Assembly (NCBI GenBank): GCA_963833985.1
Contig: CAWIAD010000002.1
Coordinates: 3,616,001 to 3,680,000, forward strand
Direction of reading: 5' to 3'
From: an uncultured Planctomycetaceae bacterium
GTDB taxonomy: Bacteria; Planctomycetota; Planctomycetia; Isosphaerales; Isosphaeraceae
DNA length: 64,000 nt
The position numbers and the translations under genes are program-made. The notes beneath the pieces were generated by a model. The model saw only the letters and a list, made by a program, of their open reading frames with translations, did no database searches and was not told the origin of the DNA. Positions 27,729 to 64,000 of the stretch are shown here, one piece after another. Numbering within the stretch: the stretch's first letter is position 1; every line of letters begins with the position of its first letter.

Positions 27729-27835
27729 CCTTCCTGGGATGATCAACCTCTGTCACCAATGGGTGGCTCGCATCGCAGGCGAGAGGCCATCCCCGCTCTG
27801 AGGGAGTGCTCCTACCAGAGACCAGGAAAGTCAAG

Positions 27836-28395: not shown

Positions 28396-28477
28396 TATGC
28401 TCTTCAGGGAAGTCCCTTTTCTTCTCGAAATTGAAAGCGTACCGAGGGTCGTCAGCCTTTAGCTTCGGAGTGCGATC

Positions 28478-29629: not shown

Positions 29630-29887
29630 TCGTCCTCCATCTCGGTGGGTTCCGAGTGGATCTCTCGTAGGGTCCCTCGATTCGTCCGATTTCGCCGATG
29701 ATTCGGGGCTCTCGGTTGGCTCACCGTCTTCGTGGTCTCTCGCCTGCCGACCATGAGGATCGGAGGTATCTGAACCAATCAATCAAACTGGACTAGAGCA
29801 GGCGGAATGAGTCCTGTGCTATCCCGCCGTCCACTCCTGATCAAGTCTCCTTCTGGGAGCCATCAACATGCAGTTGATTTAACCACC

Positions 29888-30247
29888 ATGCATGGTTCGG
29901 AGCCTCAAGTGAACAGTTACCCTGCCAGCGAACAAAAGATAAGGGATGTTGAGAGAGGTCGAATCTGCAACGCAATCCTTCCGATGCCGCGTGCAAAGAC
30001 GCTTTCCGCTGGCGATTCCATCAACTTCGACCTTGCTTATACACAGGCGGGCAAAGAGCCCTGTTACGTCAAGTGTGGGGATTCGGTCTGTGTCTCGCTC
30101 ACCGAGGTCACTGATCTCGGCGCGACTGATCCCGCAACTGGTCACGCCCTTTATCGGCTTTCGTGGAACCCGCTCGGTCAGAGCGATTCCCCCAGCAATA
30201 TCGTCAAGCGTGTCGTGAAGTCTCGTGGCTCTCTTGGTTCAGCATGA
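29888..30247 (+). CDS. Hypothetical protein (possibly ASCH/PUA-like)
   Basis: LSAGDSINF pattern; start uncertain. Confidence 0.5.
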   Translation: MHGSEPQVNSYPASEQKIRDVERGRICNAILPMPRAKTLSAGDSINFDLAYTQAGKEPCYVKCGDSVCVSLTEVTDLGATDPATGHALYRLSWNPLGQSDSPSNIVKRVVKSRGSLGSA

Positions 30248-30323
30248 CTGTCACCGGCGCAGGTTCACTTCTACACAGCAGGGGCACCGACGACAAATAG
30301 ACCTTGAGTCGCAAGGAAGAACC

Positions 30324-30806
30324 ATGCTCCGCAAACAAATCATCAAGCCACACCCGTCAACCCCGAACGCCACCACGGACGAGATCGACATCGCCACCGT
30401 TGCCACGGTGCAGGTGACCTCCGAGGCTCCCGACCATCCCATCGATCATGTCTTTGACGACCATCGGGGACCGGGCGGCACTCGCTGGATCGCCGGGGAG
30501 CCGGGTGAGCAGACCGTAATCCTTGCCTTCGACACGCCGCAAATGATCAACCAGATCCTCCTGGGAGTTGAAGAGTTGGAAGTACCTCGAACCCAGGAAC
30601 TCCAGTTGAGTCTTTCTTGCGATGGAGGAAAGACATACAGGGAATTGCTGCGACAGGAATTCAACTTCAGCCCAGACGGAACGACCTTCGAGCGGGAGAA
30701 GTGGACAGTCTCAGCCCAGGAAGTGACCCATCTACGGCTCGTGATCAAGCCAGACAAGGGGGACAAGCCCTGTCGGGCAACCCTCACGTCCTTGGTCTTG
30801 CGGTGA
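30324..30806 (+). CDS. Discoidin/galactose-binding-like beta-sandwich protein
   Basis: SEAPDHPIDHVFD..TRW, RTQE, RQEFNFSP. Confidence 0.75.
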   Translation: MLRKQIIKPHPSTPNATTDEIDIATVATVQVTSEAPDHPIDHVFDDHRGPGGTRWIAGEPGEQTVILAFDTPQMINQILLGVEELEVPRTQELQLSLSCDGGKTYRELLRQEFNFSPDGTTFEREKWTVSAQEVTHLRLVIKPDKGDKPCRATLTSLVLR

Positions 30807-31079
30807 CACAGCCAGGGTGATGGACGAAGCCCGATCTCAGGAATGGGACAACCAGATTACCTGCCCGGTGCGCTAGCCCGAGTTTTCTATCAATCTTTTC
30901 CATTTCTTGTTATCCTTTTGTCGGTTGGTCTGACGACCGAATGGTGCCGCTGGCTCTTCCCGATCCGGTCGCTGCTACTCCCTCGTCTTATCTACCCAAT
31001 AGGCTTCAACGGAAGCCCCTTTCTTCTCGACCCTGAGAGCGTCCCGAGGGTCGTCAGCCTTTCGTTTCGGAGTTCGATC

Positions 31080-31424
31080 GTGGGTAAGAAGCTATACGTG
31101 GGCAACCTGACCTACAACGTCAACGAGTCCGACCTGGAGGCGTTGTTCACGCCCTTCGGGACGGTCCAGAGCGCCCAGGTCATCGTAGACCGGGATACGA
31201 ACCGCTCGAAGGGGTTTGGGTTCGTGGAGATGGGCTCCGACGCCGAGGCGCAGGCAGCCATTCAGGGTCTCGACGGTCGTGACCACGACGGACGCAACCT
31301 GACGGTCAACGAAGCCAAGCCACGGGAAGAGCGTGGTGGCGGTGGTCGCAGCGGTGGCGGCGGCTACGGTGGTGGTCGTGGCGGCGGTGGTGGCTACGGA
31401 GGCGGTGGCGGTCGGCGTTATTGA
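31080..31424 (+). CDS. RRM RNA-binding protein 4 (canonical, RGG/Gly-rich tail)
   Basis: LYVGNL, KGFGFVEM, VNEAKPRE. Confidence 0.95.
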   Translation: MGKKLYVGNLTYNVNESDLEALFTPFGTVQSAQVIVDRDTNRSKGFGFVEMGSDAEAQAAIQGLDGRDHDGRNLTVNEAKPREERGGGGRSGGGGYGGGRGGGGGYGGGGGRRY

Positions 31425-49381: not shown

Positions 49382-50599
49382 CTATTTCTTCGGGTCAGGG
49401 CTCCAATGACCCTGCTTCAGTTTCTCATACTTCTTCGTCAGGAAGTCCAGGTGATCCCCCTTCGTCATTGCCGCCTCGAATACCTTGATCGCCAGCGGGT
49501 TCTTCCCCTTCTTCATTGCCCGGTCTGCGAGTCGGATGATCCGCCTCCACGCCCTTGATCCCATCTCCCTGGCGAGATCCTCGAATTCGTCAAACCGCTC
49601 CTGCTCGGCAACCACCTGACCCAAGAATGTGAGCGCCTCCTCACTCTGGTAATCCAGGTCATCTTCACGCAGTGCGGTGACCTCATGGCGTAGATGCTCA
49701 ACGCATAGGTCTGCCTGACTCTCCGTAAGTCCCCGGAAATAGCCCTCGATCCCATCGTCAGTGAGCCCGTAGTCCTCCCAAATCAGGAAATCCAGGAGGT
49801 CGGTGAAGAAGACCCGCTCGTCGATCTCGGTCTGGTCAAGGGGAATCTTGAGGTAGGCGGTGAAGCCGTCATCGAAACTCGCCCCAATAACGCCGAACGA
49901 GTCATCCGCTTTCTCGATCAGTTCTATGATCACCGTCATCAAGCTCCGCAAGAGCGCTTGTGCCTGAGCCACCTTATTCGCTGCGAGGAGTTTCTTTGCC
50001 TCTTCCACGTAACCGTCGAGGGTTTCAGAAATCCGAAACGACTCATTCTTTGAATAAAACCTCCTGTGGCGGAAGTGAGTGCCGATCTTCTTCGCATAGG
50101 ACTCTGGCGAGACCGGGAAATTCTTCCAGTAACCACGCAGGGCATGAATTGATCGCCGCTTTCGGGGCGTATCCTTCATAGGCTCCGACAAATCTCGCTC
50201 CCGGTAGATGGTCTGGCTCATCCTATCGATCGCTCGTCGCTTCTCCGTTTTGGCGAGATCACCAGCGGCTTTGAAGACCTGATCCGGGGTAATCACCGCT
50301 TCGTTCAGGCGGCGTTTGAGATCACGTATGTGGCATCGCTTGCGCTCGATGGAGTCACGGTGTTTGAAGAAACCTCTCCCTTCCTTGATCTGGTTGGCTA
50401 GGCGATCCAGGTCGCCGTCATGCGTATGTACGGCGACAATGCAAAACCACAAATCCCAGTAGCTCAGGTCGAGTGATGTGCCCTGGGTGGTGGGAATGGT
50501 CAAGGCGTGATCAGTACCGCTGATCGTGGGTCTCTTCTGAGGCTGGGGTTCTGGCTCCCGGATTGACGGACTCGTATTCACTCCCTTCTTCTTTGCCAT
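49382..50599 (-). CDS. Hypothetical helical protein
   Basis: 405-aa ORF with ADDSFGVIG block; GAGGA RBS. Confidence 0.8.
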   Translation of the reverse strand: MAKKKGVNTSPSIREPEPQPQKRPTISGTDHALTIPTTQGTSLDLSYWDLWFCIVAVHTHDGDLDRLANQIKEGRGFFKHRDSIERKRCHIRDLKRRLNEAVITPDQVFKAAGDLAKTEKRRAIDRMSQTIYRERDLSEPMKDTPRKRRSIHALRGYWKNFPVSPESYAKKIGTHFRHRRFYSKNESFRISETLDGYVEEAKKLLAANKVAQAQALLRSLMTVIIELIEKADDSFGVIGASFDDGFTAYLKIPLDQTEIDERVFFTDLLDFLIWEDYGLTDDGIEGYFRGLTESQADLCVEHLRHEVTALREDDLDYQSEEALTFLGQVVAEQERFDEFEDLAREMGSRAWRRIIRLADRAMKKGKNPLAIKVFEAAMTKGDHLDFLTKKYEKLKQGHWSPDPKK

Positions 50600-50715
50600 C
50601 TGAGAATCCTCGATCGGGCTTGGCTATTCCTACTTCCGAAGCTTCGTAAGCCAAGATACTCGATCAGCCAACAGAGGAGGGAGCCAGGCACAGCACCAGT
50701 TGCGTCTGTCCCCCA

Positions 50716-51129
50716 TCAGTCCTGCTTCCGACCCGATCCGCCTTTCACGATCTTCATGTTGTTCCAATCAACCAGTGGCAGCACGATGGAATTACCCGGA
50801 CCTTCACCCGTGCCCAACTGACCCATCGAGACGAAGCAGTTCTGAGACAAGAACCAAGCCATCTCCTCCTGGTTGATCGGACCATCGGCGTAAACGTCGA
50901 TCATCACAGATGCCACAAGCCTATACCTTATCAGTCCCTTGCAGCGCCTCTTGAGAATCCGCCGCATGTCTTGAGTCACAACCAGCGAATCGGCATAGGT
51001 CACGGCTTTTCGCTGGTCGTTGGAGAAGCCTCTCCCCGTCCAGTACCGCTCCCTCTCATCCTGGATGATGTACCGGAGCCATTGCGATTCGATAAAAGGA
51101 ATTGCAGCCAAGGTTGGCTTCTTCATCAT
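50716..51129 (-). CDS. Hypothetical protein, divergent member of the motif-preceded gene set
   Basis: ORF downstream of the minus-strand TGACACCGACGA copies. Confidence 0.6.
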   Translation of the reverse strand: MMKKPTLAAIPFIESQWLRYIIQDERERYWTGRGFSNDQRKAVTYADSLVVTQDMRRILKRRCKGLIRYRLVASVMIDVYADGPINQEEMAWFLSQNCFVSMGQLGTGEGPGNSIVLPLVDWNNMKIVKGGSGRKQD

Positions 51130-51157
51130 GGTGATCCCGTAATACCTCCGACGATCC

Positions 51158-51332
51158 AAGGAGCCTTCACCGGGCTCTCTCCATATACTTCGTCGGTGTC
51201 AGGCGGTGTGCGTGTCGGCTGATCCCCAGGCTGGGTGGCGCTGTCCCTGCCGATTTAAGGAGCCTTCACCGGGCTCTCTCCATATACTTCGTCGGTGTCA
51301 GGCGGTGTGCGTGTCGGCTGATCCCCAGGCTG
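51158..51332. repeat. 76-bp direct repeat (51158-51233 and 51257-51332), each containing a minus-strand TGACACCGACGA
   Basis: Identical AAGGAGCC...CCCCAGGCTG, offset 99 bp. Confidence 0.95.
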
Positions 51333-52365
51333 AATGGCGGCGCTCTCTATATAATAATACGAGGGGCGAAGGCTACGGACGCCTCCCGCACCCGTCAGGG
51401 GCATTTGTAAGTCGCATGAGACTTACGACTTGGCGACATAATCTCAATCGAGAACGAAGGTTCCGCCAACCCCCATCCTGGCTCACGTCCCCCGTCTGGT
51501 CTCATTTCCGCCGCTCCTTCGCAGCCAACTGACACCGCCGATTGCGTCGTTGATAACCAACGACCAACCGGGAGTCAGTCATGCCAACGCAAGAACAACT
51601 CAGAGAGCAGATCACCGCACAAGTCATCGCCGCCTTGGAGTCCGGTGACGTGCCGCCGTGGAGAAGACCTTGGCGACTGGGCAAGAATGCTGGTTCCCCC
51701 GCCAACGTGGTCTCCAAGCGAGGCTACCGAGGGCTCAACCTGCTGCTCTTGGACGTGGCGGCGACTCGCCACAACCTGTCCAGTCGTTGGTGGGGAACTT
51801 TCAATCAGTGGCGGCAACTGGGCGGCAGGGTGATGTCTCGTCCAAGCCACGTTCCTCCTGGCAAATGGGGAACTCAGATCGTCTTCTGGGCTCCCGTCGT
51901 CAAGACAGTCGAAAACGAGAACGGCGAGGAGGAAGAAGACCGGTTCTTCTTCATGCGGACTTACTGCGTCTTCAATAGCGAGCAAGTTGATGGGCTTGAC
52001 CACCTCAAAGCCGGTCAACCTGACACCGGTAAGAACCACGTCGTCGATTTCCAGCCCGCCGAAGAGGCATTGGAAGCCAGTCTCTCTGGGATGCAACTGA
52101 GCCTTCGTTTTGGCGGGGGCAAGGCGTTCTACAACCCTGCCCAGGACTACGTGCAGATCCCACCAAAGGCGACCTTCGAGTCACTGAAAGAGTACTACGG
52201 AACCGTCTTCCACGAACTCGTTCATGCCACGGAACACGAGTCTCGGCTGAACTGGAGTCGGAAGGACAAAGACAAGACCTATGCCTTCGGGGAACTCATC
52301 GCCGAGTTGGGCGGCGTCTTCGTCTGTCGTGAGTTGGGAGTCCCGGCGAGCGATGACCTGACTAA

Positions 52366-53875
52366 TTCTACTGTATCTCTACGTTCGTAGTTGGTTCTTC
52401 AAAGGGGGTAAGAGTTTGCGTGAGTAATGCTGGAAGAATCGGGCGAGCTCGTTGCGTTCCAACCAACGTGTGGTGCACCGGGAGAGCTTCTCGGGGCTGT
52501 TGACGTTGAGACGTTCCTCGATGATCCCTGCGATCAGTTGCCGCAACCGCGGTGACGTCAATGCCGGTGTCTGTATTTTTTCCCCGCCGCGTCTCCTGAT
52601 TCAGGAACCACGCGGCCACGAGCGACAAGGTTTGATGGTGATGCCAGGCGATCCAGTTCCGCACCTGGTAATCGGCCAGGCCCGCCTCCCCTTTGCCCCG
52701 CTCCAGGCACTCCTCGATCCGATGCGCCAGTTTGGCCACCCGGCCAAATTCGATCAACGGAGTTTCGGCTTTACTATTTGATAAATAATAATCATGTTTA
52801 ACAGTTCCATCGGCCTGTTGCTCACGCGTGATGAAGAGGACCTCCTCGAAACCTGCACGATTGCCCGGTCCTCGAGATTGGACGCGCCGCTTGATCGCGT
52901 CGACCACCAAAGGTCCCTTCTCGCCATCACGGACGTCGAGCCTCGTCCACGCCGATTCCGGCAGGGCCGCACGCCAATGATCCACACGCATGAAAGGAGC
53001 CTTGGGGGGTTGACCCCGCCCCCCATATTCCGGTGGCGGTGCCTCCAGATCGCGGATCGTCGTGTTCGACGGAACCGCCAACAGATACTGCTCCCCCCGC
53101 TCCCTCAACGCCTGGCGAAAACTCGCGGGACGGCCCATTTCATCGTCCCCCGCCACCCACGCGTGTGGCAGCAACCCACCTTGCTCATCCAGCATCGCCA
53201 GGGCCAATTGATGGCGCGTCTGGAACTTGATGGACTTGGGGACGCCAGCCTTGTTCCGGCGGTCGCGATCCTTGGCCCATTCCTTGGGCAAGTAAAGCCT
53301 TACATTGGTAATCGTATGCTCTTTTCTAGACGCATAAGCCATGTAGACGCCAACCTGACAGTTCTCAACCTTCCCCAGCCGGCCGCACCACTGCCGCGCG
53401 ACGCCCACCGACATAGTCCCTTTCTTGGGGAAGCCCGAAGGGTCGAAGATAATCACCCCATCCTTCTCGCCCAGTTGCTCGCCGACCTGCTGCGCCAGGA
53501 TCGTGAGCAGGGGTTGATGATCCCATGGCACGTGCCCGATGAACTTTTGGATTCCTTGTCGTTCTTGATCGTGGAGATAAGCGATTCCCTCGCCGGTCTT
53601 GTGCTCAAGCTTCGACAGCAGACCGGTAACGTACTCGGTTGCATGTCGATGTTGTTCAGGTTCGCTCAGGGTCGCAGCGAACGGCTCGATGAAGACGTCC
53701 AACCGTTCCAGCAGACCATCGATCAAGTCAGGCGACACCTGCGATTGTGCCAGCATGTCAGCCAACCGTGCTTCGTATCGTCGATCCATGACGCCCTCGC
53801 TTCCTTGTAACATCCTTGACGGAAGCGAATATCAGAAAAAACCTTACAGTTCGTCAACCCCAGGATACAGTAGAA
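52366..53875 (-). mobile_element. IS701-family insertion sequence
   Basis: 12-bp IR TTCTACTGTATC/GATACAGTAGAA; target duplication CTAA (52362-65, 56126-29). Confidence 0.92.
52368..53789 (-). CDS. IS701-family DDE transposase
   Basis: DPSGFPKKG..SVGVARQWCGRLGKVENCQVGV, WVAGD, IEECL. Confidence 0.92.
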   Translation of the reverse strand: MDRRYEARLADMLAQSQVSPDLIDGLLERLDVFIEPFAATLSEPEQHRHATEYVTGLLSKLEHKTGEGIAYLHDQERQGIQKFIGHVPWDHQPLLTILAQQVGEQLGEKDGVIIFDPSGFPKKGTMSVGVARQWCGRLGKVENCQVGVYMAYASRKEHTITNVRLYLPKEWAKDRDRRNKAGVPKSIKFQTRHQLALAMLDEQGGLLPHAWVAGDDEMGRPASFRQALRERGEQYLLAVPSNTTIRDLEAPPPEYGGRGQPPKAPFMRVDHWRAALPESAWTRLDVRDGEKGPLVVDAIKRRVQSRGPGNRAGFEEVLFITREQQADGTVKHDYYLSNSKAETPLIEFGRVAKLAHRIEECLERGKGEAGLADYQVRNWIAWHHHQTLSLVAAWFLNQETRRGKNTDTGIDVTAVAATDRRDHRGTSQRQQPREALPVHHTLVGTQRARPILPALLTQTLTPFEEPTTNVEIQ

Positions 53876-56119
53876 CCTACTTTCCGCACATCTCGCCTTG
53901 ACTATCTCCTAATTTCCGTGTGCCGTCTTTCGGCCTGTCAGGCTCAAATCTCGTAGGCTTTGGGTATCCCCAGCAGGCGCAGGATCCTCTTCTGGAGCCG
54001 AGTTAACTCTGTGCTGAACACCTCAAGAGGGCGTTTCCCAGCCTTCAGGGAATGCTCTTGAACGTCCTCGTACAGGTCGATCACTTTTCGAGCCGTCGGG
54101 CGTCGGCAGGCCCGACCTTCGGAATACAGTGGCAGGCTCTCGATTCCCGCTCGTTCCATCGCGCGGCGGAGTTCTCGCTCCAACAGCGCCTCGACCAGCA
54201 ACACGAAGAAGTACACGCAGAGCAAGGCCTGAATCCGACTCACCTCCTTCAGGTACATAGGCGCTACCACGAAGTCAGTCTTCAGGTGCTCGAACCGTCG
54301 TTCGATGGCCGGTTGCTGTTTGTAGGCCAAGAGCAGATCCTGCTCCGTCATCTTCGATTCGTTGCTCACCAGCGGGAAAATGCCATCACAGCGGGCCTCC
54401 TCATCCAGTCGCTCCAACTCAATCCGATGCTTCAACGAGTAACGGAGCTTCTCCTCTCGGACGTACCGCGTGTCCTGTCCAGGCCGGCCGCGTCGCTCCT
54501 GGCGGAACTTTTCGGTGACCTGCTCCTCGATCTCGACCGAGATCCACTCGGTGACCTCACAGTCTCGGAGCAGCTCCTCGACCGCCTCGGCGACCTTGGC
54601 TCGACTGCGGTACCGGGTTCGGGACGAGGCGAGCTTGGCACGCAGTTCGTCCAGTCGTTTCAACGCCTTCTCCAGCCGGGTCAGCCGTACCTCCGCATCC
54701 AACTCGGCCTTGCGTGTGCTGTGATACCAGATCAGCCGGTAACCCTCGGTGGTCTGGCTCGCAGGTTTGCAGATCGAGAAGCGGTCGGTCAACTGTCCCT
54801 TGTCGTCGTACTTGTCGTGGGTCCATCGCCACTGGATCTCTCCCCGGAGTACGGCGCCGCGGAAGGCACCGTCCTCACTGCGAGTTCGCGGCAGCACGCT
54901 GAGGAACCGACCGCCGCGCTGATGCAGATAGGCCATGTTCTCGGTGGTGGCCAGCTTGCAGTCGGCGATGTAGAGAAAGTCTCGGCGTCCGGTCAGTTGA
55001 CAGAGCAACTCCCAGGTCTCCTGGTGAGAGCGGTCGTCGGTGGCGTTGCCGCTCTCGACGCGAAAGTGCACCGGGACGGCACCGTCGCCGGTCACGGTGA
55101 GGATGTAGAGTAGCTGCTTGAGGTCGGGGCGGTGGTCTTTGTTATGACCCCAGGTCACCGCCAACCGCAATTGTCCCCGCAGGGTTCGCTCCGCCTCCGC
55201 CGACTCGTAGTCACCGTGGAAAGTGATGGTGGTCGAGTCGTTGTGTAACTGGTCGAGGCTGACGTCGAATTCGCGTACGGCATGGGCCGCGACCTTCAGG
55301 GCCAACCCCGAGAGATTGGCGTCGAAGAGACGGTCGAGGGCCCGGCCAACTCGATCGTCGTTCATTGCGGCGACTTGGACATCGGACAACCCGAACAGTT
55401 TCGGCTCATGGCGGGCCACCCACTCACCGACACCATAGAGTGGCTCACGCGAGATCAGCAGGTTGCGCAGCAGGACGAGCAAGGCCGTGGCCGTGGGGAC
55501 CCGAGTGCGGCCGTCCTCATGGGGCAGGTGGTCGCAGAGAAACTCGCGAAGGCGGAGCCGACTCAGGAAGTGTTCCAGGATGGGCACGGCGGCAATCCGC
55601 CGCGTGTTGAGCGTGCGCTTGCGTCCCTTCGAGCGTGCCGTCTCGCCGGGTTGGCGCGGTCGTTGAGGTTCGTTCATGCGGATCATCTCCGGAGGGTTTG
55701 CAGCGAGTTGGCCGGTGTCCGCCGCCGGGCCTTCCAGGGCCGTGAGGGGAGCAGGCCGACCGCCGCAGGGCTTGCCGCAATGATGGCGGAGGAGATCGGG
55801 ACGTCAAGGACAAAAAATCTTGTGATTCACTTATGACAATTTGCCTTGACGTAAGTTGTGAGCCGCTCAACTTACGCTCATAGCCCGTGTCACAAGTCGT
55901 CGCGGCGAGAATCGCGGCGCGCGGCTGGACATTGCCAAGTCATAAGACAAGGCGAAGAATGGCTCGAGTTCAGGAACGGTCCGGTTGGCGAACCATCTGA
56001 ACCGAACAAGGTCCCCGTGCCGATCGACTTGTAGATGTTTACCGACCCTGGGGCCGCGTCTGAGAAGATGGCCTCAGGTCGAATTCGGGGAAATCAAAGG
56101 GAGATGTGCGGAAAGTAGG
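53876..56119 (-). mobile_element. IS1634-family insertion sequence
   Basis: 19-bp IR CCTACTTTCCGCACATCTC/GAGATGTGCGGAAAGTAGG; 6-bp duplication GTAGAA (53870-75, 56120-25). Confidence 0.92.
53944..55686 (-). CDS. IS1634-family transposase
   Basis: NDDRVGRALD, HNDST, GHNKDHRPDLKQ, IADCKL, IERRFEHLK. Confidence 0.92.
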   Translation of the reverse strand: MIRMNEPQRPRQPGETARSKGRKRTLNTRRIAAVPILEHFLSRLRLREFLCDHLPHEDGRTRVPTATALLVLLRNLLISREPLYGVGEWVARHEPKLFGLSDVQVAAMNDDRVGRALDRLFDANLSGLALKVAAHAVREFDVSLDQLHNDSTTITFHGDYESAEAERTLRGQLRLAVTWGHNKDHRPDLKQLLYILTVTGDGAVPVHFRVESGNATDDRSHQETWELLCQLTGRRDFLYIADCKLATTENMAYLHQRGGRFLSVLPRTRSEDGAFRGAVLRGEIQWRWTHDKYDDKGQLTDRFSICKPASQTTEGYRLIWYHSTRKAELDAEVRLTRLEKALKRLDELRAKLASSRTRYRSRAKVAEAVEELLRDCEVTEWISVEIEEQVTEKFRQERRGRPGQDTRYVREEKLRYSLKHRIELERLDEEARCDGIFPLVSNESKMTEQDLLLAYKQQPAIERRFEHLKTDFVVAPMYLKEVSRIQALLCVYFFVLLVEALLERELRRAMERAGIESLPLYSEGRACRRPTARKVIDLYEDVQEHSLKAGKRPLEVFSTELTRLQKRILRLLGIPKAYEI

Positions 56120-56297
56120 GTAGAACTAACCACATTGCCTATCTCGGGAACTGGCTCCAAGCCATGAAGAACGATTCCCGGTTCATCATCATGGCGAGTG
56201 CTCAGGCGAGCAAAGCCGCCTCTTACATCCTGTCGTTCAGCAGGAAAGAGGAGGAAGTCCCTCAAGAAGACGGTGAACTGGTCACTGCCTGACCTCT

Positions 56298-56319
56298 TGC
56301 GGGAACGGAGTCCCGCAAC
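56298..56319 (+). terminator. Hairpin after ardC
   Basis: TTGCGGGA-ACGGAG-TCCCGCAA; no U-tract, directly followed by a motif copy. Confidence 0.4.
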
Positions 56320-56355
56320 CTGACACCGCCGAACAAACTGTCCCGATCGAGGACA

Positions 56356-56517
56356 ACCGGAACAGGGACGCCCGAGACGATCAAGTGGCGGCTCGGCTTT
56401 AGCGATCTACACGCAGCGTTGAACCGCTCCCTGAACTGCGCAGCAGCGGGCGGAATTCTGCTGCCATTGTGAACGCTCGAAGCCGCACTGGATCAACGAC
56501 GGCGTTCCCTGTCCGGT
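56356..56517 (+). ncRNA. Candidate structured non-coding RNA or ssDNA element
   Basis: Nested inverted repeats forming a long branched stem between two motif copies; no credible ORF. Confidence 0.5.
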
Positions 56518-56579
56518 CTCTTCTGAACCGACACCGCCGAGAGGGGTGCGAGAGCACCACACCCATAAGGGAGACGACC

Positions 56580-56798
56580 GTGAGCATTGGTGAAATGACC
56601 GCCGAACCTCAACTCGGCGACACGGCGTTTTATCGTGCTGCCATCCCACGAGCCAGGAAGCAACGAGTGACCGTATCGGGGTTGTTCCTGAATGGGCGCA
56701 TCAAAGTCACCTTCCCGGATGGGAGTTGGAAAAGCCTCCCACGTCATTATCACAAGCGGATTCAGAACGAGCGATTCGGGCTTGTAAGGATCGAATAG
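56580..56798 (+). CDS. Small basic hypothetical protein
   Basis: GTG start with GGGAG RBS, 51 nt after a motif copy. Confidence 0.65.
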   Translation: MSIGEMTAEPQLGDTAFYRAAIPRARKQRVTVSGLFLNGRIKVTFPDGSWKSLPRHYHKRIQNERFGLVRIE

Positions 56799-56883
56799 CA
56801 GTCACAACCGCGACTTCAGCGTCACCGTTTGACACCGCCGAAAGGGATGTGAGATCAACACACACCTAGCAACGGAGATCAAC

Positions 56884-57489
56884 ATGACAGCACTGGGTGA
56901 AATGACCCTAGAAGATGCCGCAAAGCAAGCGGCAGGAAATTGGCAGCGTTTCGAGTGCTTTGTGTGGTTCAGGGACGAGGAGGTTGATGACCCCGACAAC
57001 TGGGTGATCATCTACACGCACAACAGAGACAGCGGTCTCCTTGACAAGAGCAACGCCGAAGCCATCGCCGAAGCGATGGAGCCGTTCACGAACGGTCACG
57101 ACCCGGATGTGGTGGTGGAATCCCATAACCACTGGGCAGTCGGGCACGTGGATGGCTTCAGCATCAGGGTTTACCGGGACGGTGAGATCACCGGAGCCTT
57201 CCGCACCTACCACGACCTGATGGAGCAAGTGGACGGCTACCCAATCCTGGATGAAGAGGATTATTGGGAACGGGAACTTGATGCGACCCTCGAAAACATC
57301 AGTGACGCCGCATGGCGTGTGAAGCACGAATACACCTTGCCCGAGGGCTGGGAAGGAGACGTTTACTCCTGGCTGAGCGACAACCGCTCGGGAGCCGTCG
57401 AGAACCGTGACGACCAAGGGGGCTATCCCGAAGAGGATGACCTTCGGGCGGCGTTCGCTGCCCTGGGCTATGAGCGGATCGAAGAGTAG
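56884..57489 (+). CDS. Acidic hypothetical protein
   Basis: NRDSGLLDKSN, HWAVGHV, YPILDEEDY; GGAG RBS. Confidence 0.85.
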   Translation: MTALGEMTLEDAAKQAAGNWQRFECFVWFRDEEVDDPDNWVIIYTHNRDSGLLDKSNAEAIAEAMEPFTNGHDPDVVVESHNHWAVGHVDGFSIRVYRDGEITGAFRTYHDLMEQVDGYPILDEEDYWERELDATLENISDAAWRVKHEYTLPEGWEGDVYSWLSDNRSGAVENRDDQGGYPEEDDLRAAFAALGYERIEE

Positions 57490-57547
57490 GACCGGGTGAC
57501 ACCGCCGAGGAGGGTGTGATGAACGCCCTCTTCGATGGAGTGAGACC

Positions 57548-57754
57548 ATGAACGAAAGCCCCGATGAGTGGCTCGAACGGCTCTTCGAGTTCGAGTACTG
57601 CCCAGAGTGCGGCGGCGATGCCGACGACCATGAAGTGAGCGTGGTCTTGGGGAATTACTTTGCGTGGTGCAAGCGGTCTCCCTTCGCCGACACCGCCGAG
57701 GAGGGTGTGATGAACACCCTCCCCGATGGAGCACGTGGGGCATCTGTGCCATGA
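57548..57754 (+). CDS. Small acidic Zn-ribbon-like protein
   Basis: CPECGGD..H..WC; reads through the next motif copy. Confidence 0.65.
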   Translation: MNESPDEWLERLFEFEYCPECGGDADDHEVSVVLGNYFAWCKRSPFADTAEEGVMNTLPDGARGASVP

Positions 57755-57825
57755 GTGACCGAGGCGGGGCTGGCATCTTCAGCCCCGCTCACCTGACACC
57801 GGATAACAACCTCGGAGAGCAGTCA

Positions 57826-58191
57826 ATGGCACTGATTGAGCGAAACGGCAGGGTCTATGCCCGCAAACTGTGGATCTTCCTCGGCGCGAGCGAATGGGGC
57901 AACGACCTCATGAGGCTGGTCGCGAGGGAAGCCTTCGCCAATGACGCCAGCTTGGATGCCGTCCAGGTACACGAGCACGGTGGCTGGTATCTCACCTTCC
58001 TGCGAGGCGGCACGATCGTCGGCATCGCCAACGATCAGGCGCATCTCGATGACAGAGCCAATCGGCGGGAGAGATTCGCCGCCCCTGACACCGACGAGAA
58101 GGGCATGGATGCCATGCCGCAGAGCACACGCATGGGGAATACGAATGAGCAACTCAGGAATCACACCACGGTTCAGCCTTCTCCAACTTGA
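57826..58191 (+). CDS. Hypothetical protein
   Basis: ATG 57826 with GGAG; reads through motif 58086. Confidence 0.65.
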   Translation: MALIERNGRVYARKLWIFLGASEWGNDLMRLVAREAFANDASLDAVQVHEHGGWYLTFLRGGTIVGIANDQAHLDDRANRRERFAAPDTDEKGMDAMPQSTRMGNTNEQLRNHTTVQPSPT

Positions 58192-58543
58192 CGAGACCAA
58201 GTTCTGGGCGGATGAGGTTGTCCGTAGTGCCAAGCAGGTTTTCGGTCTTTACGTCTTTGACCAGAACAGGAGGGTCCATTGTTGCGAGTTCACACCCAGC
58301 TACGAGTGCGTCTTCGTCGGTTCCGCTATCGGGAACACCGACCTCGACGAAACCGCCAACGAACGGCTCGACACCGCCATCAGAGAGGGCGATCTGGAAA
58401 CCGAGCAGGTGAAGTACATCCACTGCCGCGAGATCGACGCCCTTCCGAAGATCGGCGATCAAGACCTCAAGGTGGGCGTCTCCGACCTCAACATCGATGA
58501 CGAAGAGGAAGCCCTGGAATACGTCCGACAGCGGGCTCTTTGA
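58145..58543 (+). CDS. Acidic hypothetical protein
   Basis: VHCCEFTPSYE ORF, 59 nt after a motif copy. Confidence 0.75.
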   Translation: MSNSGITPRFSLLQLDETKFWADEVVRSAKQVFGLYVFDQNRRVHCCEFTPSYECVFVGSAIGNTDLDETANERLDTAIREGDLETEQVKYIHCREIDALPKIGDQDLKVGVSDLNIDDEEEALEYVRQRAL

Positions 58544-58594
58544 AGTGACACCGCCGACAAGTGCGACAGGCAACCCCCAACTCAGGAGACCCAC

Positions 58595-59488
58595 ATGGCA
58601 TTCACCGCTGATACCGGGGACCACAAAGTCACCCGCAGCGACATTTACCTCGTAGACCCCACGGCGCTGATCGTGGACTGGCGGAAGAACCTCAGCCGCA
58701 ACGGCGAGGAGCCACCCGTTGACGAACCTCTCATGGATCTGGCTCGCGACATGATGCCCAAGAGGGGGCAGGGCGACACGGAGGAGGGCACAAGCGGGCA
58801 ACTCAATCCGATCCTCGTTCGACCCCTCAGCGACCGTCGCCTGGAGGTGGTAGGCGGCTTCCGCCGCATGCGGGCAGCCCTCTGGCTCATCGAGTCGGGC
58901 ACGTGCCCCGACTTCAAGATCAAGTACGTCGTCAGCCGCCTGTCCGACGCCGAGGCGGCACTGATCAACCTCAGCGAGAACATCCAACGGGAAGATCCCA
59001 AGCCCATCCAGCTTGCCCACGCGGTACGGGCACTGACCGAGGATTATGGACTTACTCTCAAGCAGGTTGCAGGACGACTGAAACGCTCCGAGGCTTGGCT
59101 GTCGAATTTGCTCAACCTCGTGATGCTTCCCACTTCGATCCAGGAGAGCGTGGCGAACGGGAAGACTCCCGTCTCTGCCGCCCTTGAACTGACCAAGTTC
59201 CCGACCGACAAGCAGGTCGAGACCTTCAACGACCTGGCAGCCAGTGGCGAGAAAGTCACCGCTGCCAAGGTGCGGAAGAGGCGGCAGGAGACGCACGAGG
59301 CGACCGGTGAGGGCGGTCCCGTGCCCCGCACCCTCAAGCAACTGAGGGCATTCCTCGAAGGAAAGACCGGTCCCGCCGACCCCGGTCACAAGCTCGCCTC
59401 CTACCTGCTCGACTACCTGGCGGGCAAGAAGAGCGATGACAACCTGGGCAAGTACTGGGACAAGGCGTTCCCCGAAGGCAACGGCTGA
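58595..59488 (+). CDS. ParB/Srx-like protein with HTH
   Basis: GQLNPILVR, GGFRRMRAA, ENIQRED, HTH LKQVAGRLKRSEAWLS. Confidence 0.88.
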   Translation: MAFTADTGDHKVTRSDIYLVDPTALIVDWRKNLSRNGEEPPVDEPLMDLARDMMPKRGQGDTEEGTSGQLNPILVRPLSDRRLEVVGGFRRMRAALWLIESGTCPDFKIKYVVSRLSDAEAALINLSENIQREDPKPIQLAHAVRALTEDYGLTLKQVAGRLKRSEAWLSNLLNLVMLPTSIQESVANGKTPVSAALELTKFPTDKQVETFNDLAASGEKVTAAKVRKRRQETHEATGEGGPVPRTLKQLRAFLEGKTGPADPGHKLASYLLDYLAGKKSDDNLGKYWDKAFPEGNG

Positions 59489-59543
59489 CACCAACGTAGG
59501 GGGCGTGACCAACGCCCCCATCAAAAACCAAAGGGATCGCACG

Positions 59544-60479
59544 ATGACCTACCCCGCACTGACCCTGATCAACCCGATCCCGGACGAGTCCGCCCAGGTC
59601 GCCGAGGAGTCCACGCTCACGGCGCTGGAAGAGCGGCAGAATCTCCTGGCTCATCACGTGCGGCTCGTCGCCCGAGGTCTCTCAGTAGGGCTCTTCGTTT
59701 ATGGACCGCATGGAGGGCTTGGTAAGAGCCGCACAGTGCTGCGGACACTCGCTGATGAAGGCGTGTCGCCGATTCTCGTGAACTCGCACATCACGCCTCT
59801 GGCTCTCTACAGCACGCTCTACTTCAACCGCTCGGGGAAAGTCGTCTTCTTCGACGACGTGGATTCAATCTTTGGCTCTATGTCGCACCTTGGCTTGCTT
59901 CGATCGGCTCTCTGGGGCGATCCCAGGATCGTCACATACGGGTCAAGCCAATTGGATGATCTGCTGGGCTCGTTCATCTTCGAGTCCCGTCTCATCTTTT
60001 CGGGCAACGTGATCCCCAAGCGGAACGACGCCTTCAAGGCAGTGCTCTCGCGGTGCGACATCTTTCAACTCGATGCGACCCAGGAAGAGGTCATTGAACT
60101 CATGAGGTCGGTCTCAAGGCAGGGCTATGAGACGCTGACGCCCGATGACTGCCTCGAAGTCGTAACGTTCATCGAGGAGAACGGTGATGACCGCGCGATC
60201 TCGATAAGGCTCTTGGAGCCGAGCTTCCGCAAGGTGATCTACGCACAATCGGAGGGCTTGGACTGGCGACCGCTTGTCCTGACCCAACTCCGCACTCTCG
60301 GACGCAAAGAGGATACGTCCCGCCGCGTGGACGCCAAGGCTCGGGAGATTCGCACACTTCACCAAGCCATCGAGCGGTTCCCTGACTCTGTGGCTGAGCA
60401 GCAGATGTTCTGGAGCAAAGTAACGAGCAAAAGCCGGGCTTCCTTTTTCCGGCTCATCGCCAAGCACCGTCCACGTTGA
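59544..60479 (+). CDS. P-loop ATPase with C-terminal HTH-like segment
   Basis: GPHGGLGKS, VFFDDVD, SRASFFRL. Confidence 0.8.
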   Translation: MTYPALTLINPIPDESAQVAEESTLTALEERQNLLAHHVRLVARGLSVGLFVYGPHGGLGKSRTVLRTLADEGVSPILVNSHITPLALYSTLYFNRSGKVVFFDDVDSIFGSMSHLGLLRSALWGDPRIVTYGSSQLDDLLGSFIFESRLIFSGNVIPKRNDAFKAVLSRCDIFQLDATQEEVIELMRSVSRQGYETLTPDDCLEVVTFIEENGDDRAISIRLLEPSFRKVIYAQSEGLDWRPLVLTQLRTLGRKEDTSRRVDAKAREIRTLHQAIERFPDSVAEQQMFWSKVTSKSRASFFRLIAKHRPR

Positions 60480-60528
60480 CGATGAGCAGTGGTCCACAGA
60501 GACGGCAAGTGAAAGACTCGCGTCCCGC

Positions 60529-60768
60529 TTACAAGCTGACTTGCACAGCGAGACGGACAATCACGAGAGTCATGATGACGGTATAAGCAATGCAGAGGGT
60601 GGCTCCCGTCAAGGCGAGGTTACGAGACCAGCCAGATGCTCCCTTCGTCATCGAGACAGCCCCAATGGCGATCATCGGGGACACTGGCAATAGCCAGAAG
60701 CAGGCTACGCTCAGGATGGCAAACAGCTTCGCCATTCGCCCCCGCATCACTCCAGCAACAGTGTTCAT
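60529..60768 (-). CDS. Small membrane protein, antisense to the array
   Basis: Two hydrophobic helices; GGAG before the ATG. Confidence 0.55.
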   Translation of the reverse strand: MNTVAGVMRGRMAKLFAILSVACFWLLPVSPMIAIGAVSMTKGASGWSRNLALTGATLCIAYTVIMTLVIVRLAVQVSL

Positions 60769-60969
60769 GACGCAAGCTCCTCGTGTCGCATCAGCAACCC
60801 TTCTAATCTTGGCACCGTCTACGACATCTGTCAATTCACTGCCTGCCAGTCTTCATTTGCCCAGGAGGAGCCCCTCAACTCCCTGGCTCAACAGTGCGAC
60901 TGCTGAGCCTGAACTGACACCGCCGATCCTCACGTTGAGAACGACAACCACATCAACGGGAGGATCAAC

Positions 60970-61410
60970 ATGATCACGAGATGCGAGCGGCGCGGACAAG
61001 TTGAGATAGGGATCGTTGACCATGAGGGACGGTCCTACGCCGCCTTCGGTTCATCCGTCAACGATCACAACGTAACGGGTTACACCCGGAACCGCAACGG
61101 GTGCATCAGCCTGACTCGCTGGGAGGGCAGCACAATGCTTGCCAGCCGGTCGAATATCGTACGTGAGTATCACGACGGCTCCATCGCCATCATGTTCCGC
61201 CTGACCAACCTCCGGTTCCTCGTCGGCTACGCCCTGGGCGACGACGGCATGTTGTTCAGGGGTGAACTCCTGACCGATTGCGACGGGGAGCGTGCCCGCC
61301 ACGAGTCGGCTGCCCTGGCTCAGTACTGGTCCGAGATCGATGCCGAGGATGAATCTGACCCCTGGCACGGGGAGCCCGACGAGACTGATGGCGATTACCT
61401 GGACAGATAG
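60970..61410 (+). CDS. Hypothetical protein with acidic tail
   Basis: GGGAGG RBS, 55 nt after a motif copy. Confidence 0.75.
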   Translation: MITRCERRGQVEIGIVDHEGRSYAAFGSSVNDHNVTGYTRNRNGCISLTRWEGSTMLASRSNIVREYHDGSIAIMFRLTNLRFLVGYALGDDGMLFRGELLTDCDGERARHESAALAQYWSEIDAEDESDPWHGEPDETDGDYLDR

Positions 61411-61501
61411 CAGTTCACGGGTGGGGCGGTAGTAGTGCCGTCTCACTCGACACCGCCGATGGCGGCATCAACTACTACTTGTCTTAAACGGGAGCGACTT
61501 C

Positions 61502-61810
61502 ATGAGCGTGAATGAGACCAAGAAGCCCTTGTTCGACCTTGGACAGATCGTCGCGACTCCCGGAGCCTTGGACGCCCTGCGAGACGCCAGGCAGACACTC
61601 GCCGAGTTCTTGACCCGTCACGTGAGCGGCGACTGGGGCGACCTCGATCAAGAGGATAGCAACCTCAATGACGCCGCCGTGATCGACGGCAGCCGCATCC
61701 TGAGCGCCTATCAGACACGCAAAGGGGAGCGGATTTGGATCATCACCGAAGCGGCTGATGACCAGGGGCACCGCTCTTCAAGCACGCTGCTTTTACCTCG
61801 GGAGTATTGA
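61502..61810 (+). CDS. Conserved plasmid/ICE-associated small protein
   Basis: LGQIVATPGA, RHVSGDWGD, SRILSAY, IWIITE, TLLLPREY. Confidence 0.85.
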   Translation: MSVNETKKPLFDLGQIVATPGALDALRDARQTLAEFLTRHVSGDWGDLDQEDSNLNDAAVIDGSRILSAYQTRKGERIWIITEAADDQGHRSSSTLLLPREY

Positions 61811-61914
61811 ACTCATCCCATTCCATCCCTTCTCGCCGGGCTGACACCGGTGAGACGGGTGTGAGATCAATCCCAGCCGTACCCAAGCACCAAGAGGGAC
61901 GATCACACCTGCGG

Positions 61915-62382
61915 CTAAACAGGCTCAGTGGGGTTCCTCTTGCTCCACCGGTGGCAGATCCAGCCAGCAACCAAAGCCGGGATCAATTGGAGCATCGTCA
62001 AATAAGCCATAGCTATTCCAAACCTACAGATGTAATCAGCAGCAGACTGCTGAGAAGTAATGGCTCTCACCACTGGACCAAGGGTGCGGCTCAAGTGCTG
62101 GTCGAGGGAGATGGGAGCCTGGAAACAGACGGCAACATAAACCAGGAGACCAATCCAGCCAACGACCTCAATCCCCGCGAGAAAAGAGAGCGGCTTGTCC
62201 CTTCGTTTTCGCCGTCCAAACAAGACCAGCAGCCCGATGACCAGGACGATCTGAAACGGCAATCCGCCGAAGACAAGGGGATAGAGGACCAGATCAGGCA
62301 AGCCCCGGATCGCCAGACAATCCACGGCGACGATGGCGACGATCACCATGATCTCAGCGATCGAGATCCGAGGGGGTCTCAC
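61915..62382 (-). CDS. Planctomycete-type membrane protein, antisense to the array
   Basis: GTG 62382 with GGGAGG; RPPRISIAEIM N-terminus. Confidence 0.7.
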   Translation of the reverse strand: MRPPRISIAEIMVIVAIVAVDCLAIRGLPDLVLYPLVFGGLPFQIVLVIGLLVLFGRRKRRDKPLSFLAGIEVVGWIGLLVYVAVCFQAPISLDQHLSRTLGPVVRAITSQQSAADYICRFGIAMAYLTMLQLIPALVAGWICHRWSKRNPTEPV

Positions 62383-62512
62383 GGCAATCCCTCCCTTTCG
62401 TCCATCCGGCACGCTTTCGACCAACACATCGTAACCCGCACGGGCACCTCCTGCACCCGACACCGCCGAGACGAATGTGAAATCAACGCCCTCAAACGTG
62501 AAAGGAAGATGT

Positions 62513-62764
62513 ATGACCGACCCAACCGAGGACATCCGGCGTCAGATGCTCGCCGAGATCAACGCCGCCCCCGGCTCCAGGGAGTATCTGGAGCACAAGC
62601 ACGGTCAGGTCTGGGATACCCAGCAATTGTCTGATGACTTCGAGGTGCTGGGGTTCGCCGCCCCGCTCGTCGTCGTGAAAAGGAAGAGCGACGGGCAGAA
62701 GGGGAGCCTCTGCTTCCAGGGCTCTCCCCGGTTCTACTTCGGGTTTGAGGCGCACAAGCCGTGA
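62513..62764 (+). CDS. Small hypothetical protein
   Basis: WDTQQLSDDFEVLGFAAPLVVV..GSLCFQGSPRFYF. Confidence 0.8.
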   Translation: MTDPTEDIRRQMLAEINAAPGSREYLEHKHGQVWDTQQLSDDFEVLGFAAPLVVVKRKSDGQKGSLCFQGSPRFYFGFEAHKP

Positions 62765-62815
62765 CACCGCCGAAGGGGGCGTTGAGAACGACGCCCCTTT
62801 CCCGGAGGAAGACCG

Positions 62816-63037
62816 ATGGCAGTGGCACTCCTGACAACCAGCGCAGTCGAGTCGATCCTGCGTGACGCAGTGGACAAAGGCTGTTACGTGGAACACAGCA
62901 AGTCTGATGGGACAGCCAAAGCGTTCCACAGTGGTGACTTGGTGTTCCAGTCCATCCAGAAGGGTAAAGACGGACCCTGGATCTGCCGGTTCGTCAACAC
63001 GGAACATATCACCTGGACCAGCACGACCGAAGACTGA
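62816..63037 (+). CDS. Small hypothetical protein
   Basis: GGAGG RBS, 54 nt after a motif copy; stop lies inside the next copy. Confidence 0.7.
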   Translation: MAVALLTTSAVESILRDAVDKGCYVEHSKSDGTAKAFHSGDLVFQSIQKGKDGPWICRFVNTEHITWTSTTED

Positions 63038-63139
63038 CACCGACGACAAGGGCGGGAAGGGACGCCTGCCCCAATCAATTCCCAGAAGGGGTCGTCCACG
63101 CAATGTTTCGCGCCTATTGGCTCTCTCGGAGATCCTGAC

Positions 63140-63874
63140 ATGCCCGAAAACCCCTCCGATGACATGACTCACAATGCAAAGCCGAAATCATCCGAGGCTC
63201 AACTCGTCTCCAGGATTACCCGCCTGGTCAAGAAGGAGGGCTTGGACTACGAGGGCTGGCGGTATGTAAGCAAGAGGGTGCGGCGGCTCTGTGACCTGCG
63301 ACCCGAGAAGAAAGGGCGTCGGCTGCCCCGAATCTTGACCACCGAGGAGTTCAGGAGGTTCTATCAGATCGTGGACCGTGCCCAGGACGTTCAGCACTGC
63401 CTGATGCTCAGGCTCTTGTTCTTCACGGCAGTAAGGGTCAGTGAACTCTGCAACATCGGAGTTTCCGAAGTTGATATCGAGGCGTGCAAGATCAGGATCA
63501 ACCAGGGCAAGGGCTCCAAGGATCGCTACGTCCTCTTCGGCAAGTCCTTCGCCACGGCGCTGCGAACGCATATAGCAGCCCACCCGAACAACCGCTGGCT
63601 CTTCCAGACCCAAAGGCACGGCAAGTTCAGCACGAGGAGGGTGCAGCAGATCGTCTCCAAGTACGCCGAGGAGGCGGGAGTCAAAGCTACCCCTCACACC
63701 TTCCGGCACCAGGCGATTACCTGGTTGACTCGCCATTCAGGGCTTGCTGACGCTGAGCTTCAACTGATCACCGGTCATGCCCGCAGAGAGACCCTTGCTG
63801 TCTACCAGCACATGGCTCTCGATGGTGATTTGGAGGCAAAGTATCAGTCGTCCATGAAAGAGATCGAACTTTGA
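63140..63874 (+). CDS. Compact tyrosine recombinase/integrase
   Basis: R (AVRVSE), K (GKGSK), HxxR (PHTFRH), H (TGH), Y (AVYQH). Confidence 0.93.
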   Translation: MPENPSDDMTHNAKPKSSEAQLVSRITRLVKKEGLDYEGWRYVSKRVRRLCDLRPEKKGRRLPRILTTEEFRRFYQIVDRAQDVQHCLMLRLLFFTAVRVSELCNIGVSEVDIEACKIRINQGKGSKDRYVLFGKSFATALRTHIAAHPNNRWLFQTQRHGKFSTRRVQQIVSKYAEEAGVKATPHTFRHQAITWLTRHSGLADAELQLITGHARRETLAVYQHMALDGDLEAKYQSSMKEIEL

Positions 63875-64000
63875 CGATGTACAAAAGTGGGACGGCGAAA
63901 CGCTCGATCGGCTGACACCGCCTAGCGGGCTCCGGAGAACGACCCTCAGCACCCCTCACCGGGAAACTCAGCCGTGTATTTCCTGACCCTAACGCCAGAC

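Follow-up and report, generated by a model that had tools for sequence, protein, structure and literature searches.

A gene-dependent hairpin accompanies a fixed-spacing, promoter-like box before the genes of a planctomycete island array that encodes a candidate sigma factor without region 4

The genome of an uncultured Planctomycetaceae bacterium (Isosphaeraceae; assembly GCA_963833985.1, here G000) comprises 10.2 Mb with a guanine plus cytosine (GC) content of 65%. Its contig CAWIAD010000002.1 carries an island of 132.5 kb with 57% GC, flanked by a 47-bp direct repeat of the 3′ end of tRNA-Ala(GGC), and the stretch analysed here, which we call the window, consists of the 64,000 nucleotides (nt) at G000:C2:3616001-3680000 around which this island extends. 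From position 51581 the window holds small co-oriented genes on the + strand: ardC, genes for a ParB-like protein, a P-loop-like protein and a tyrosine recombinase, and several unnamed ones. Beyond the window the array runs on with a repeat unit and a gene for a 152-residue (aa) protein (L001:2262-2781, 1.3-1.8 kb past base 64000), followed by a terminal repeat unit and a conserved non-coding stretch of about 240 nt (L001:2858-3115). Our subject is the repeated element that stands before these genes, for which an earlier note, made from the sequence alone, had proposed a function as single-stranded RNA or DNA.

The constant feature of this element is a box of fixed spacing, YGACACC-RNCGR-N6-YGTSR, after which come a Shine-Dalgarno (SD) sequence and a start codon. 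The exact word GACACCGCCGA occurs 11 times in the window, every time on the + strand and from 51531 to 62763, and 29 times genome-wide, with 14 of the 29 inside one 50-kb bin; 17 copies of the box lie inside the window and 2 more just past it. Related loci were assembled around homologues of the linked 152-aa protein and supplemented by six genomes chosen through a motif pattern search of 121 genomes of the family, in which 45 gave matches that were mostly single and read as chance, and these six gave array-like matches. Those loci that have titles belong to Planctomycetota, many of them to Isosphaeraceae. An iterated weight matrix, started from the window copies and restricted in each locus to the majority strand, yielded 241 distinct box copies, from which the logo was built. 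As a check on circularity, all YGACACC sites with an SD and start codon were taken with the second box unscored: YGT stood exactly at +19 in 120 of 174 such distinct sites, and the next-best offset had 5. An SD and start codon lie at leader distance in 148 of 240 copies; the same is true of 1 of 44 sites with equally high scores in the rest of the host genome. Promoters are usually recognised by just this combination, two boxes whose spacing is fixed and a leader that varies.

The TGA of the box is also the stop codon of the preceding gene in 23 of 149 cases, in the window at 59486, 62762 and 63035. This overlap, together with one unit per gene, a gene content that differs between arrays and the presence of a recombinase in the array, might suggest an attC-like folded site at which gene cassettes are recombined by the array's tyrosine recombinase. 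True attC sites are folded, with R-box ends at every cassette. We consider this idea, which the earlier note had listed, most improbable: the recombinase reaches 74.6 bits with TIGR02249, far below the integron-integrase cut-off of 265, its best match is XerA-like, and it is missing from many arrays that carry the repeat. Moreover, many units have no stem, the genes are for the most part collinear, which deletion between direct repeats would predict, and the box also precedes isolated genes. An example is the ClpX-like AAA+ gene near the island end, with a box 71 nt upstream in two islands, an arrangement that could link the regulon to proteolysis or excision.

Searches for established signals gave little at the copies. 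Sigma-70-like sites numbered 3 in 51000-64000 where 2.8 were expected, none of them at a box copy; terminator-like sites between array genes numbered 8 where 10.5 were expected, again none at a copy, and the copies have no U-tail. Rfam returned no match at E <= 1 in 50000-64000, and in three loci only the tRNA. A sigma-54 promoter, whose consensus combines TGGCAC with TTGC at -12, was considered for the likeness to TGGCAC and rejected, the logo having no -12 TTGC. Box 1 as a -10 element of the opposite strand was likewise set aside: its geometry would put the RNA start at or past the start codon, yet the SD is conserved. Among viral contigs there were 3 single motif matches and no array, nor any homologue of the 152-aa protein. 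Tandem arrays of AAATGAACTGACACC elsewhere in G000 have the word TGACACC in common with the box, in a different context; they presumably resemble the repeats found beside tyrosine transposases associated with repetitive extragenic palindromes. A literature search, outside whose scope lay supplements including the group promoter motifs of PMC7826278, gave no account of the motif or the protein family.

The hairpin is a second and softer layer. All seven stems cited in the earlier note are present at their copies, and against dinucleotide shuffles a fold with z <= -2.5 is found at 9 of the 17 window copies and at neither of the two just past the window. Across relatives, arms were exchanged between non-orthologous copies in a set of 193 non-redundant copies: the native arms fold better than swapped ones in 136, and a strong stem occurs in 87, against a mean of 25.5 (maximum 36) in 50 arm-swap controls, although the p-values of the native-versus-swapped test are overstated because the copies are related. 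The conservation claimed for the hairpin thus holds for part of the copies and is not universal. Nor does it lie directly after the motif, as had been thought: its 5′ arm is formed by the spacer and the second box, YGT at +19 to +21, which the note had missed. Loops do start at a similar offset, +22 to +24, and the reported initial GA, seen in 3 of the 7 cited stems, is the end of the second box; loop length and sequence vary.

Whether a copy has a strong stem follows the gene downstream. Six orthologous groups have it in 12/12, 9/10, 8/8, 7/7, 6/6 and 4/4 members, and four others keep the box with a strong stem in only 0/12, 3/12, 1/7 and 1/4. Nearly every copy before ardC, one group of genes for the 152-aa sigma-like protein and four further genes has the stem. 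Few or none have it before parB and two small genes that are very common, or at the terminal position, and all of these keep the boxes; ardC and the sigma genes have the longest stems. Pairing is in part maintained by compensation. An ungapped alignment of ten sequences (eight orthologues, and two copies from the window that were included because their register matches) has two-sided changes in 6 of 20 pairs, with a covariation score reached by none of 500 shuffles and much lower scores in slid registers; 12 leaders of one sigma group have compensatory changes in 5 of 16 pairs; and in 44 disjoint copy pairs pairing is kept in 20 double changes, against 1-7 in slid registers. Covariation was the check named in the earlier note, and its absence is not what we found, because compensatory changes occur in orthologous alignments and in copy pairs alike. 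The constraint on the stem is real but soft, and it depends on the gene.

These data bear on a further view, in which the element is an RNA signal on one long transcript, such as boxA/boxB-like antitermination, a processing site or a CsrA-type site. Covarying stems, a slight excess of G.U on the sense strand and a csrA gene in the array just past the window would suit it. We regard it as quite improbable, given that there are no terminators between array genes beyond chance and no Rfam match, that loop length and sequence vary, and that half of the copies have no stem yet retain two boxes at a fixed distance. The fold is under some selection, to which extent the proposal of a single-stranded function stands, but the invariant two-box part persists where the hairpin is absent, and this suits a protein-binding site on double-stranded DNA better than it does a folded substrate. 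The copies have no Rfam match, U-tail or sigma-70 promoter, and no mechanism among the four named in the earlier note fits well.

One of these, in the form of a promoter or priming site on single-stranded DNA (ssDNA; Frpo/ssi-like) that folds on the incoming strand after transfer, involves the non-coding stretch at the end of the array. Homologues of this stretch (L001:2882-3115, 1.9 kb past the window end) were found by nhmmer after the terminal copy in many related islands, and a remnant lies at G000:C2:5914916-5915059. It has no clear consensus RNA fold, the folds being weak on both strands (-5.6 and -5.8), and a structured RNA was rejected on that ground; no match adjoins the host TrwC gene. 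The stretch is a candidate transfer or replication origin. Were it the transfer origin, a co-oriented ardC/parB array pointing at it, the longest stems on ardC and the sigma genes, and near-equal G.T and A.C mismatches, which suit either strand, would be in keeping with ssDNA promoters. The box is kept, however, in gene families without a stem. A search of the islands in five genomes for the TrwC (MOBF) relaxase and the TrwB coupling protein gave neither (no genome-wide search covered other relaxase families), and among 60 scanned proteins, 34 of them from one complete island, none matched a transfer family. In Frpo, transcription exits through the base of the stem; here that would place the start at or past the start codon. 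Known ssDNA promoters are also large and rebuild the -35 and -10 boxes of sigma-70, whereas the structures here measure 20-50 nt with loops of 3-9 nt. New classes of ssDNA promoter do exist, as PMC12672017 reports, and we nonetheless judge such a site distinctly unlikely.

The position of the stems suggests a different role. In long stems, box 1 (TGACACC) pairs with the SD region, often GGAGTCA, in several gene families; at the copy at 51530 an outer stem pairs the box with the SD region, with z of -3.5 when the 5′ arm is included and -0.4 when it is not. The predicted cost of opening the SD-to-start region is 9.2 kcal/mol with the 5′ arm, 6.0 for an RNA starting at +30 and 7.3 after arm-swapping, and it is higher with the 5′ arm in 109 of 136 copies. 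The largest drops occur in two sigma groups (14.8 with and 5.5 without the arm; 14.5 and 6.9) and in ardC (13.2 and 7.5), and the leader of the sigma gene next to our window gives 13.1 and 5.3 when folded with upstream context. A translational lock is thus predicted for the sigma genes, ardC and two other groups, and not for the groups without stems.

The candidate reader of the box is the product of the last array gene (L001:2323-2781, 1.3 kb past the window), itself preceded by a box. Residues 1-87 of this 152-aa protein are predicted to form the sigma-2 fold of extracytoplasmic function (ECF) sigma factors, without the helix-turn-helix of sigma-4. The predicted model has a mean pLDDT (predicted local distance difference test) of 76.6, and these residues match sigma-2 domains: in a wide structural search with VIA-align, ranks 1-13 are sigma-factor entries (the title of rank 8 names only an M. 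tuberculosis initiation complex), with SigR (Z 9.1, root-mean-square deviation 2.4, 75 residues aligned) and SigH (Z 9.0) at the head. Sequence comparison agrees in part, with a weak match to TIGR02983 (E 0.007), Sigma70_r2 clusters of the atlas at 0.91, and a search of the PDB with the sigma alignment that gave one designed bundle (E 0.28). We found 130 homologues among 150 candidates, and D37, K45 and W47 are invariant in 51 homologues. Distant longer relatives pass the Pfam cut-offs for Sigma70_r2 (P0218) and Sigma70_r4 (P0243), hhalign to one relative gave 96%, and in the alignment the family of 144-155 aa stops before the recognition helix of relatives of 180-230 aa. Sigma70_r4 was matched by none of 51 family members; longer fused forms lay outside the homologue search, and a separate profile search had no length limit. 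Among the array proteins too there was no Sigma70_r4 match, the sole helix-turn-helix being in ParB, and one small conserved array protein matched only unnamed atlas clusters. Searched as a single protein against 401 genomes of the phylum, the factor was found in G000 alone; the alignment found matches in 25 of 121 family genomes, weak matches to longer relatives included. The full-length sigma-2+4 relatives (L043:11019-11591, L155-L159) are mostly below the Pfam cut-offs, and several share a conserved hairpin-like leader before the start.

The box accompanies the sigma gene and varies with it. Fifty distinct homologues have upstream DNA, and before them we find 42 exact boxes, 4 of variant A, 2 of variant B and 2 unclassified sites, one of which is a box copy whose spacer lacks 1 nt. 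All 4 proteins with variant A group in a single clade (support 95/100); its own box is repeated 3-6 times in 4 of 5 loci, with at most two canonical-pattern matches per 20 kb, and several of its leaders also fold over the SD. Boxes of about AAHGACCGGACRMRCCCT (L037, L038, L043, L044, L086) and GMACCC-N7-YGT (L042, L072, L092) stand before divergent sigma homologues. In six long loci (L031, L032, L034, L036, L039, L041) the sigma factor is the only one of 15 window-array proteins present, and each of the six retains the box.

From these observations we propose, with what we take to be slightly better than an even chance, that the repeats are island promoters for the island's own sigma factor without region 4, and that the stem blocks translation of read-through RNA in the manner of T4 late genes. 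The repeat would be a promoter before nearly every array gene, read by the host RNA polymerase with the island's shortened sigma. YGTSR would be the -10 element opened by sigma-2, placing the RNA start near +29 to +33, and GACACC..CG would lie near -30 to -21, to be read by the protein's unusual C-terminal 65 residues or by a partner protein. Transcripts begun at the promoter would have no 5′ arm and an open ribosome-binding site (RBS); read-through transcripts would carry both arms and be locked. The hairpin would then be a gene-dependent extra on the promoter in several gene families. The sigma gene has this promoter too, so that positive feedback would turn the array on, and the strongest predicted lock, on the sigma genes and ardC, would stop chance read-through from tripping the switch. 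We infer the start site, the polymerase binding and the lock alike.

Several points tell against this proposal. We know of no way in which a sigma factor without sigma-4 reads box 1, the most invariant part, and the gap of 12 nt from TGACAC to YGT is about 4 nt shorter than ECF spacing. A Z near 9 for a helical domain may reflect a common arrangement of helices; with Foldseek the best sigma match, SigH, is not significant (E 1.9) and nothing reaches E <= 0.001; and residues 88-152 are poorly modelled, with pLDDT in the 50s over about 80-130. Two stem-bearing groups have no predicted lock (5.2 against 4.1; 5.7 against 6.1), and the array's own sigma leader in a short fold is no better than shuffles (z -0.3). 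In the 44 disjoint pairs, whose register was picked from the same sequences, 78 single changes break a pair and 17 keep it. The preference for one strand is weak, G.T to A.C being 34:19 in one count and 26:27 in a second, where the control gave 110:284. Arrays without a close sigma homologue exist in G429 (91% complete) and G444 (72%), and in G443 the homologue is broken and about 90 kb from the array; G429 still has the terminal copy that normally follows the sigma gene, which fits loss of the gene by deletion between repeats and does not prove it. A full-length sigma-2+4 relative lies behind the variant box in L043/L044. Finally, the linkage of sigma and box is partly built in, because most loci were found through the sigma gene, and whatever the regulator, a box and a gene that share an element would diverge in step.

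Arrays without a sigma gene (two of them) and the full-length sigma in variant loci would also suit a promoter-operator of CUP/EGeRS type, read by a host or full-length ECF sigma and controlled by another protein of the element, with the 152-aa protein as passenger or competitor and the stems stabilising mRNA. TGACA does resemble TTGACA, the architecture is that described in parts of PMC5371602 and PMC6294495 for the IncN CUP regulon and the establishment genes of p576 beside ardC, and leader stems in p576 are there proposed to raise transcript stability (PMC6294495). Yet there is no sigma-70 consensus promoter at any copy, and no conserved repressor-like gene among the shared array proteins. 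It is not a host regulon, because high-scoring sites elsewhere so seldom precede genes, and the 5′ arm, which would lie upstream of the start, could not stabilise the promoter's own RNA. We hold this alternative to be unlikely. A bolder form of the reading by the island's own sigma we offer tentatively and as a single joint claim, with well under an even chance: the protein would be a new class of stand-alone sigma factor, derived from ECF sigmas by loss of region 4, whose new C-terminal module reads the box near -30, and it would govern a regulon of its own, about 20 promoters with short spacers on islands of Planctomycetota, in which hairpins embedded in the promoters would leave its genes, and the sigma gene above all, untranslatable from read-through RNA and so complete a two-layer, all-or-none switch.

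The individual repeat units and neighbouring genes are listed in the table. The copy at 57688 nearly duplicates that at 57497. Related islands lie at tRNA or transfer-messenger RNA (tmRNA) genes. A divergent integrase and a ClpX-like gene are found in them, together with cargo of restriction type; the cargo comprises defence systems, including Mrr, an SNF2 helicase, an Eco57I-type methylase, McrBC-like proteins and DUF499/DUF1156 (L005:15089-19963, L006:4310-12618; L019, L099). A likely island integrase adjoins the att repeat (L004:3692-5631); because it is shorter than its homologues and has an IS630-like transposase directly upstream, the island may be immobile. Genes resembling csrA (L001:1876-2202, - strand) and a thioesterase (L001:1197-1598, - strand) lie inside the array on the opposite strand, and the csrA-like gene was found again in 17 loci. 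Several genes for RNA-binding proteins with RNA recognition motifs, with a repeated leader, occupy window positions 27832-31424 and have no bearing on the box and hairpin.

Repeat units, neighbouring genes and related features. Positions are those of the window unless a locus or contig is named; ORF, open reading frame.
Feature	Position	Strand	Remarks
Two tandem partial copies, box 1 only	51190..51300	-	Inside 89-nt duplication; face divergent 147-aa ORF 50716-51159
Repeat unit before ardC	51530..51580	+	Box 1, spacer, box 2; stem 51546-51552/51558-51564; start 51581
ardC, 5′ part	51581..52390	+	Anti-restriction; ArdcN and truncated MPTase-PolyVal; split by two insertion sequences
Two adjacent multicopy insertion sequences in ardC	52362..56121	-	DDE_5 and DUF4277/DDE_Tnp_1; outside repeat system
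Repeat unit, no downstream start codon	56321..56370	+	No significant stem
Repeat unit	56529..56579	+	5-bp stem 56545-56549/56554-56558; SD; GTG start 56580; 72-aa ORF to 56798
Repeat unit	56830..56883	+	Moderate stem; start 56884; 201-aa ORF
Repeat unit	57497..57547	+	Long stem reaching SD; start 57548
Repeat unit	57688..57735	+	9-bp stem 57700-57708/57714-57722; SD-like GGAG; no start at usual distance
Shortened unit	57794..57825	+	Box 1 closely followed by SD; second box missing; start 57826
Repeat unit	58086..58144	+	7-bp stem 58102-58108/58112-58118; start 58145; 132-aa ORF
Repeat unit before parB-like gene	58546..58594	+	Spacer 2 nt short; no stem
parB-like gene	58595..59488	+	Stop codon is TGA of next box
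Repeat unit	59486..59543	+	8-bp stem 59499-59506/59512-59519; start 59544; 311-aa P-loop-like ORF, phrog_1250
Repeat unit	60915..60969	+	Weak stem; start 60970
Repeat unit	61448..61501	+	Gene family without conserved stem; start 61502
Repeat unit	61842..61890	+	No start codon at usual distance
Repeat unit	62458..62512	+	No stem (0/12 in gene family); start 62513
Repeat unit	62762..62815	+	11-bp stem 62774-62784/62789-62799 with G.T pairs; TGA is previous stop; start 62816
Repeat unit	63035..63075	+	7-bp stem 63050-63056/63065-63071, one G.T; TGA is previous stop; long leader to recombinase
Tyrosine recombinase, XerA/C-like	63140..63874	+	Below integron-integrase cut-off
Degenerate repeat unit	63913..63973	+	GTG start 63974
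ClpX-like AAA+ gene with box 71 nt upstream	L001:13728-14434	-	
ClpX-like AAA+ gene with box 71 nt upstream	L018:7728-8950	+	
AAATGAACTGACACC arrays	G000:C2 ~2427000-2428400, ~3099700-3101900; C1 ~2430800, ~2448100		

In this account the stem comes second to the element itself, a promoter-like repeat associated with an unusual sigma factor without sigma-4. A place in the ECF classification (PMC7826278) calls for sigma-2 and sigma-4 together; factors lacking region 4 drop out of it, and the 152-aa family would be filtered out for that reason, while those known from mobile elements are split pairs. A factor of 152 aa with a two-box promoter, specificity variants and many target sites would let upstream recognition without sigma-4 be tested, and could serve as an orthogonal switch for transcription that is very small and carries its own guard against leaky read-through. 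It would also give a first handle on how defence-rich planctomycete islands integrated at tRNA and tmRNA genes turn on their anti-restriction and maintenance genes.

The element resembles several known systems and fails a defining feature each of the ECF class, Frpo, attC and CUP. With ECF sigma factors of group 4 the 152-aa protein shares a sigma-2 fold closest to SigR and SigH, a putative promoter before its own gene and (C/T)GT at the putative -10, and it differs in the shorter spacing of its box; sigma-2 contacts are treated in PMC12019637. Frpo and ssi, as described in parts of PMC11541004 and PMC12672017, likewise place hairpins upstream of anti-defence genes; theirs are large, obligatory stem-loops with sigma-70 boxes, whereas the island stems are short and occur in about half of the copies. 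The IncN CUP and p576 systems share upstream repeats before small co-oriented genes beside an anti-restriction gene, and recombination between repeats that reshapes the array, but in the portions of PMC5371602 and PMC6294495 that describe them they have housekeeping-sigma promoters, a repressor (ArdK, Reg576) and conjugative plasmids as hosts; in the island we found neither a sigma-70 consensus nor a repressor, and no MOBF transfer genes. Element-encoded, auto-activating sigma factors are exemplified by Sig7-Sig8 of Tn916, SigO-RsoA of B. subtilis and SigN of pBS32, whose positive feedback read-through transcription can trip (10.64898/2026.10.01.756105, in part). By the same source, these are either split sigmas whose region-4 subunit is known or a full sigma, and Sig7-8 has one main target promoter; the island, by contrast, has about 20 copies serving single genes, with no region-4 partner found among the shared array proteins. 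In phage T4, gene e and I-TevI have hairpins that sequester the RBS in RNA initiated upstream, and there too the promoter is part of the stem's 5′ arm, according to the relevant part of PMC3014915. The late factor gp55, as presented in part in PMC7892883, is like the island's a sigma-2-type factor without a sigma-4 of its own; it uses a -10-like element only and is activated by gp33 and the sliding clamp. The island element differs from T4 in its upstream box, invariant and 12 nt away from the putative -10, in its ECF-like factor and in its home on a chromosomal island.

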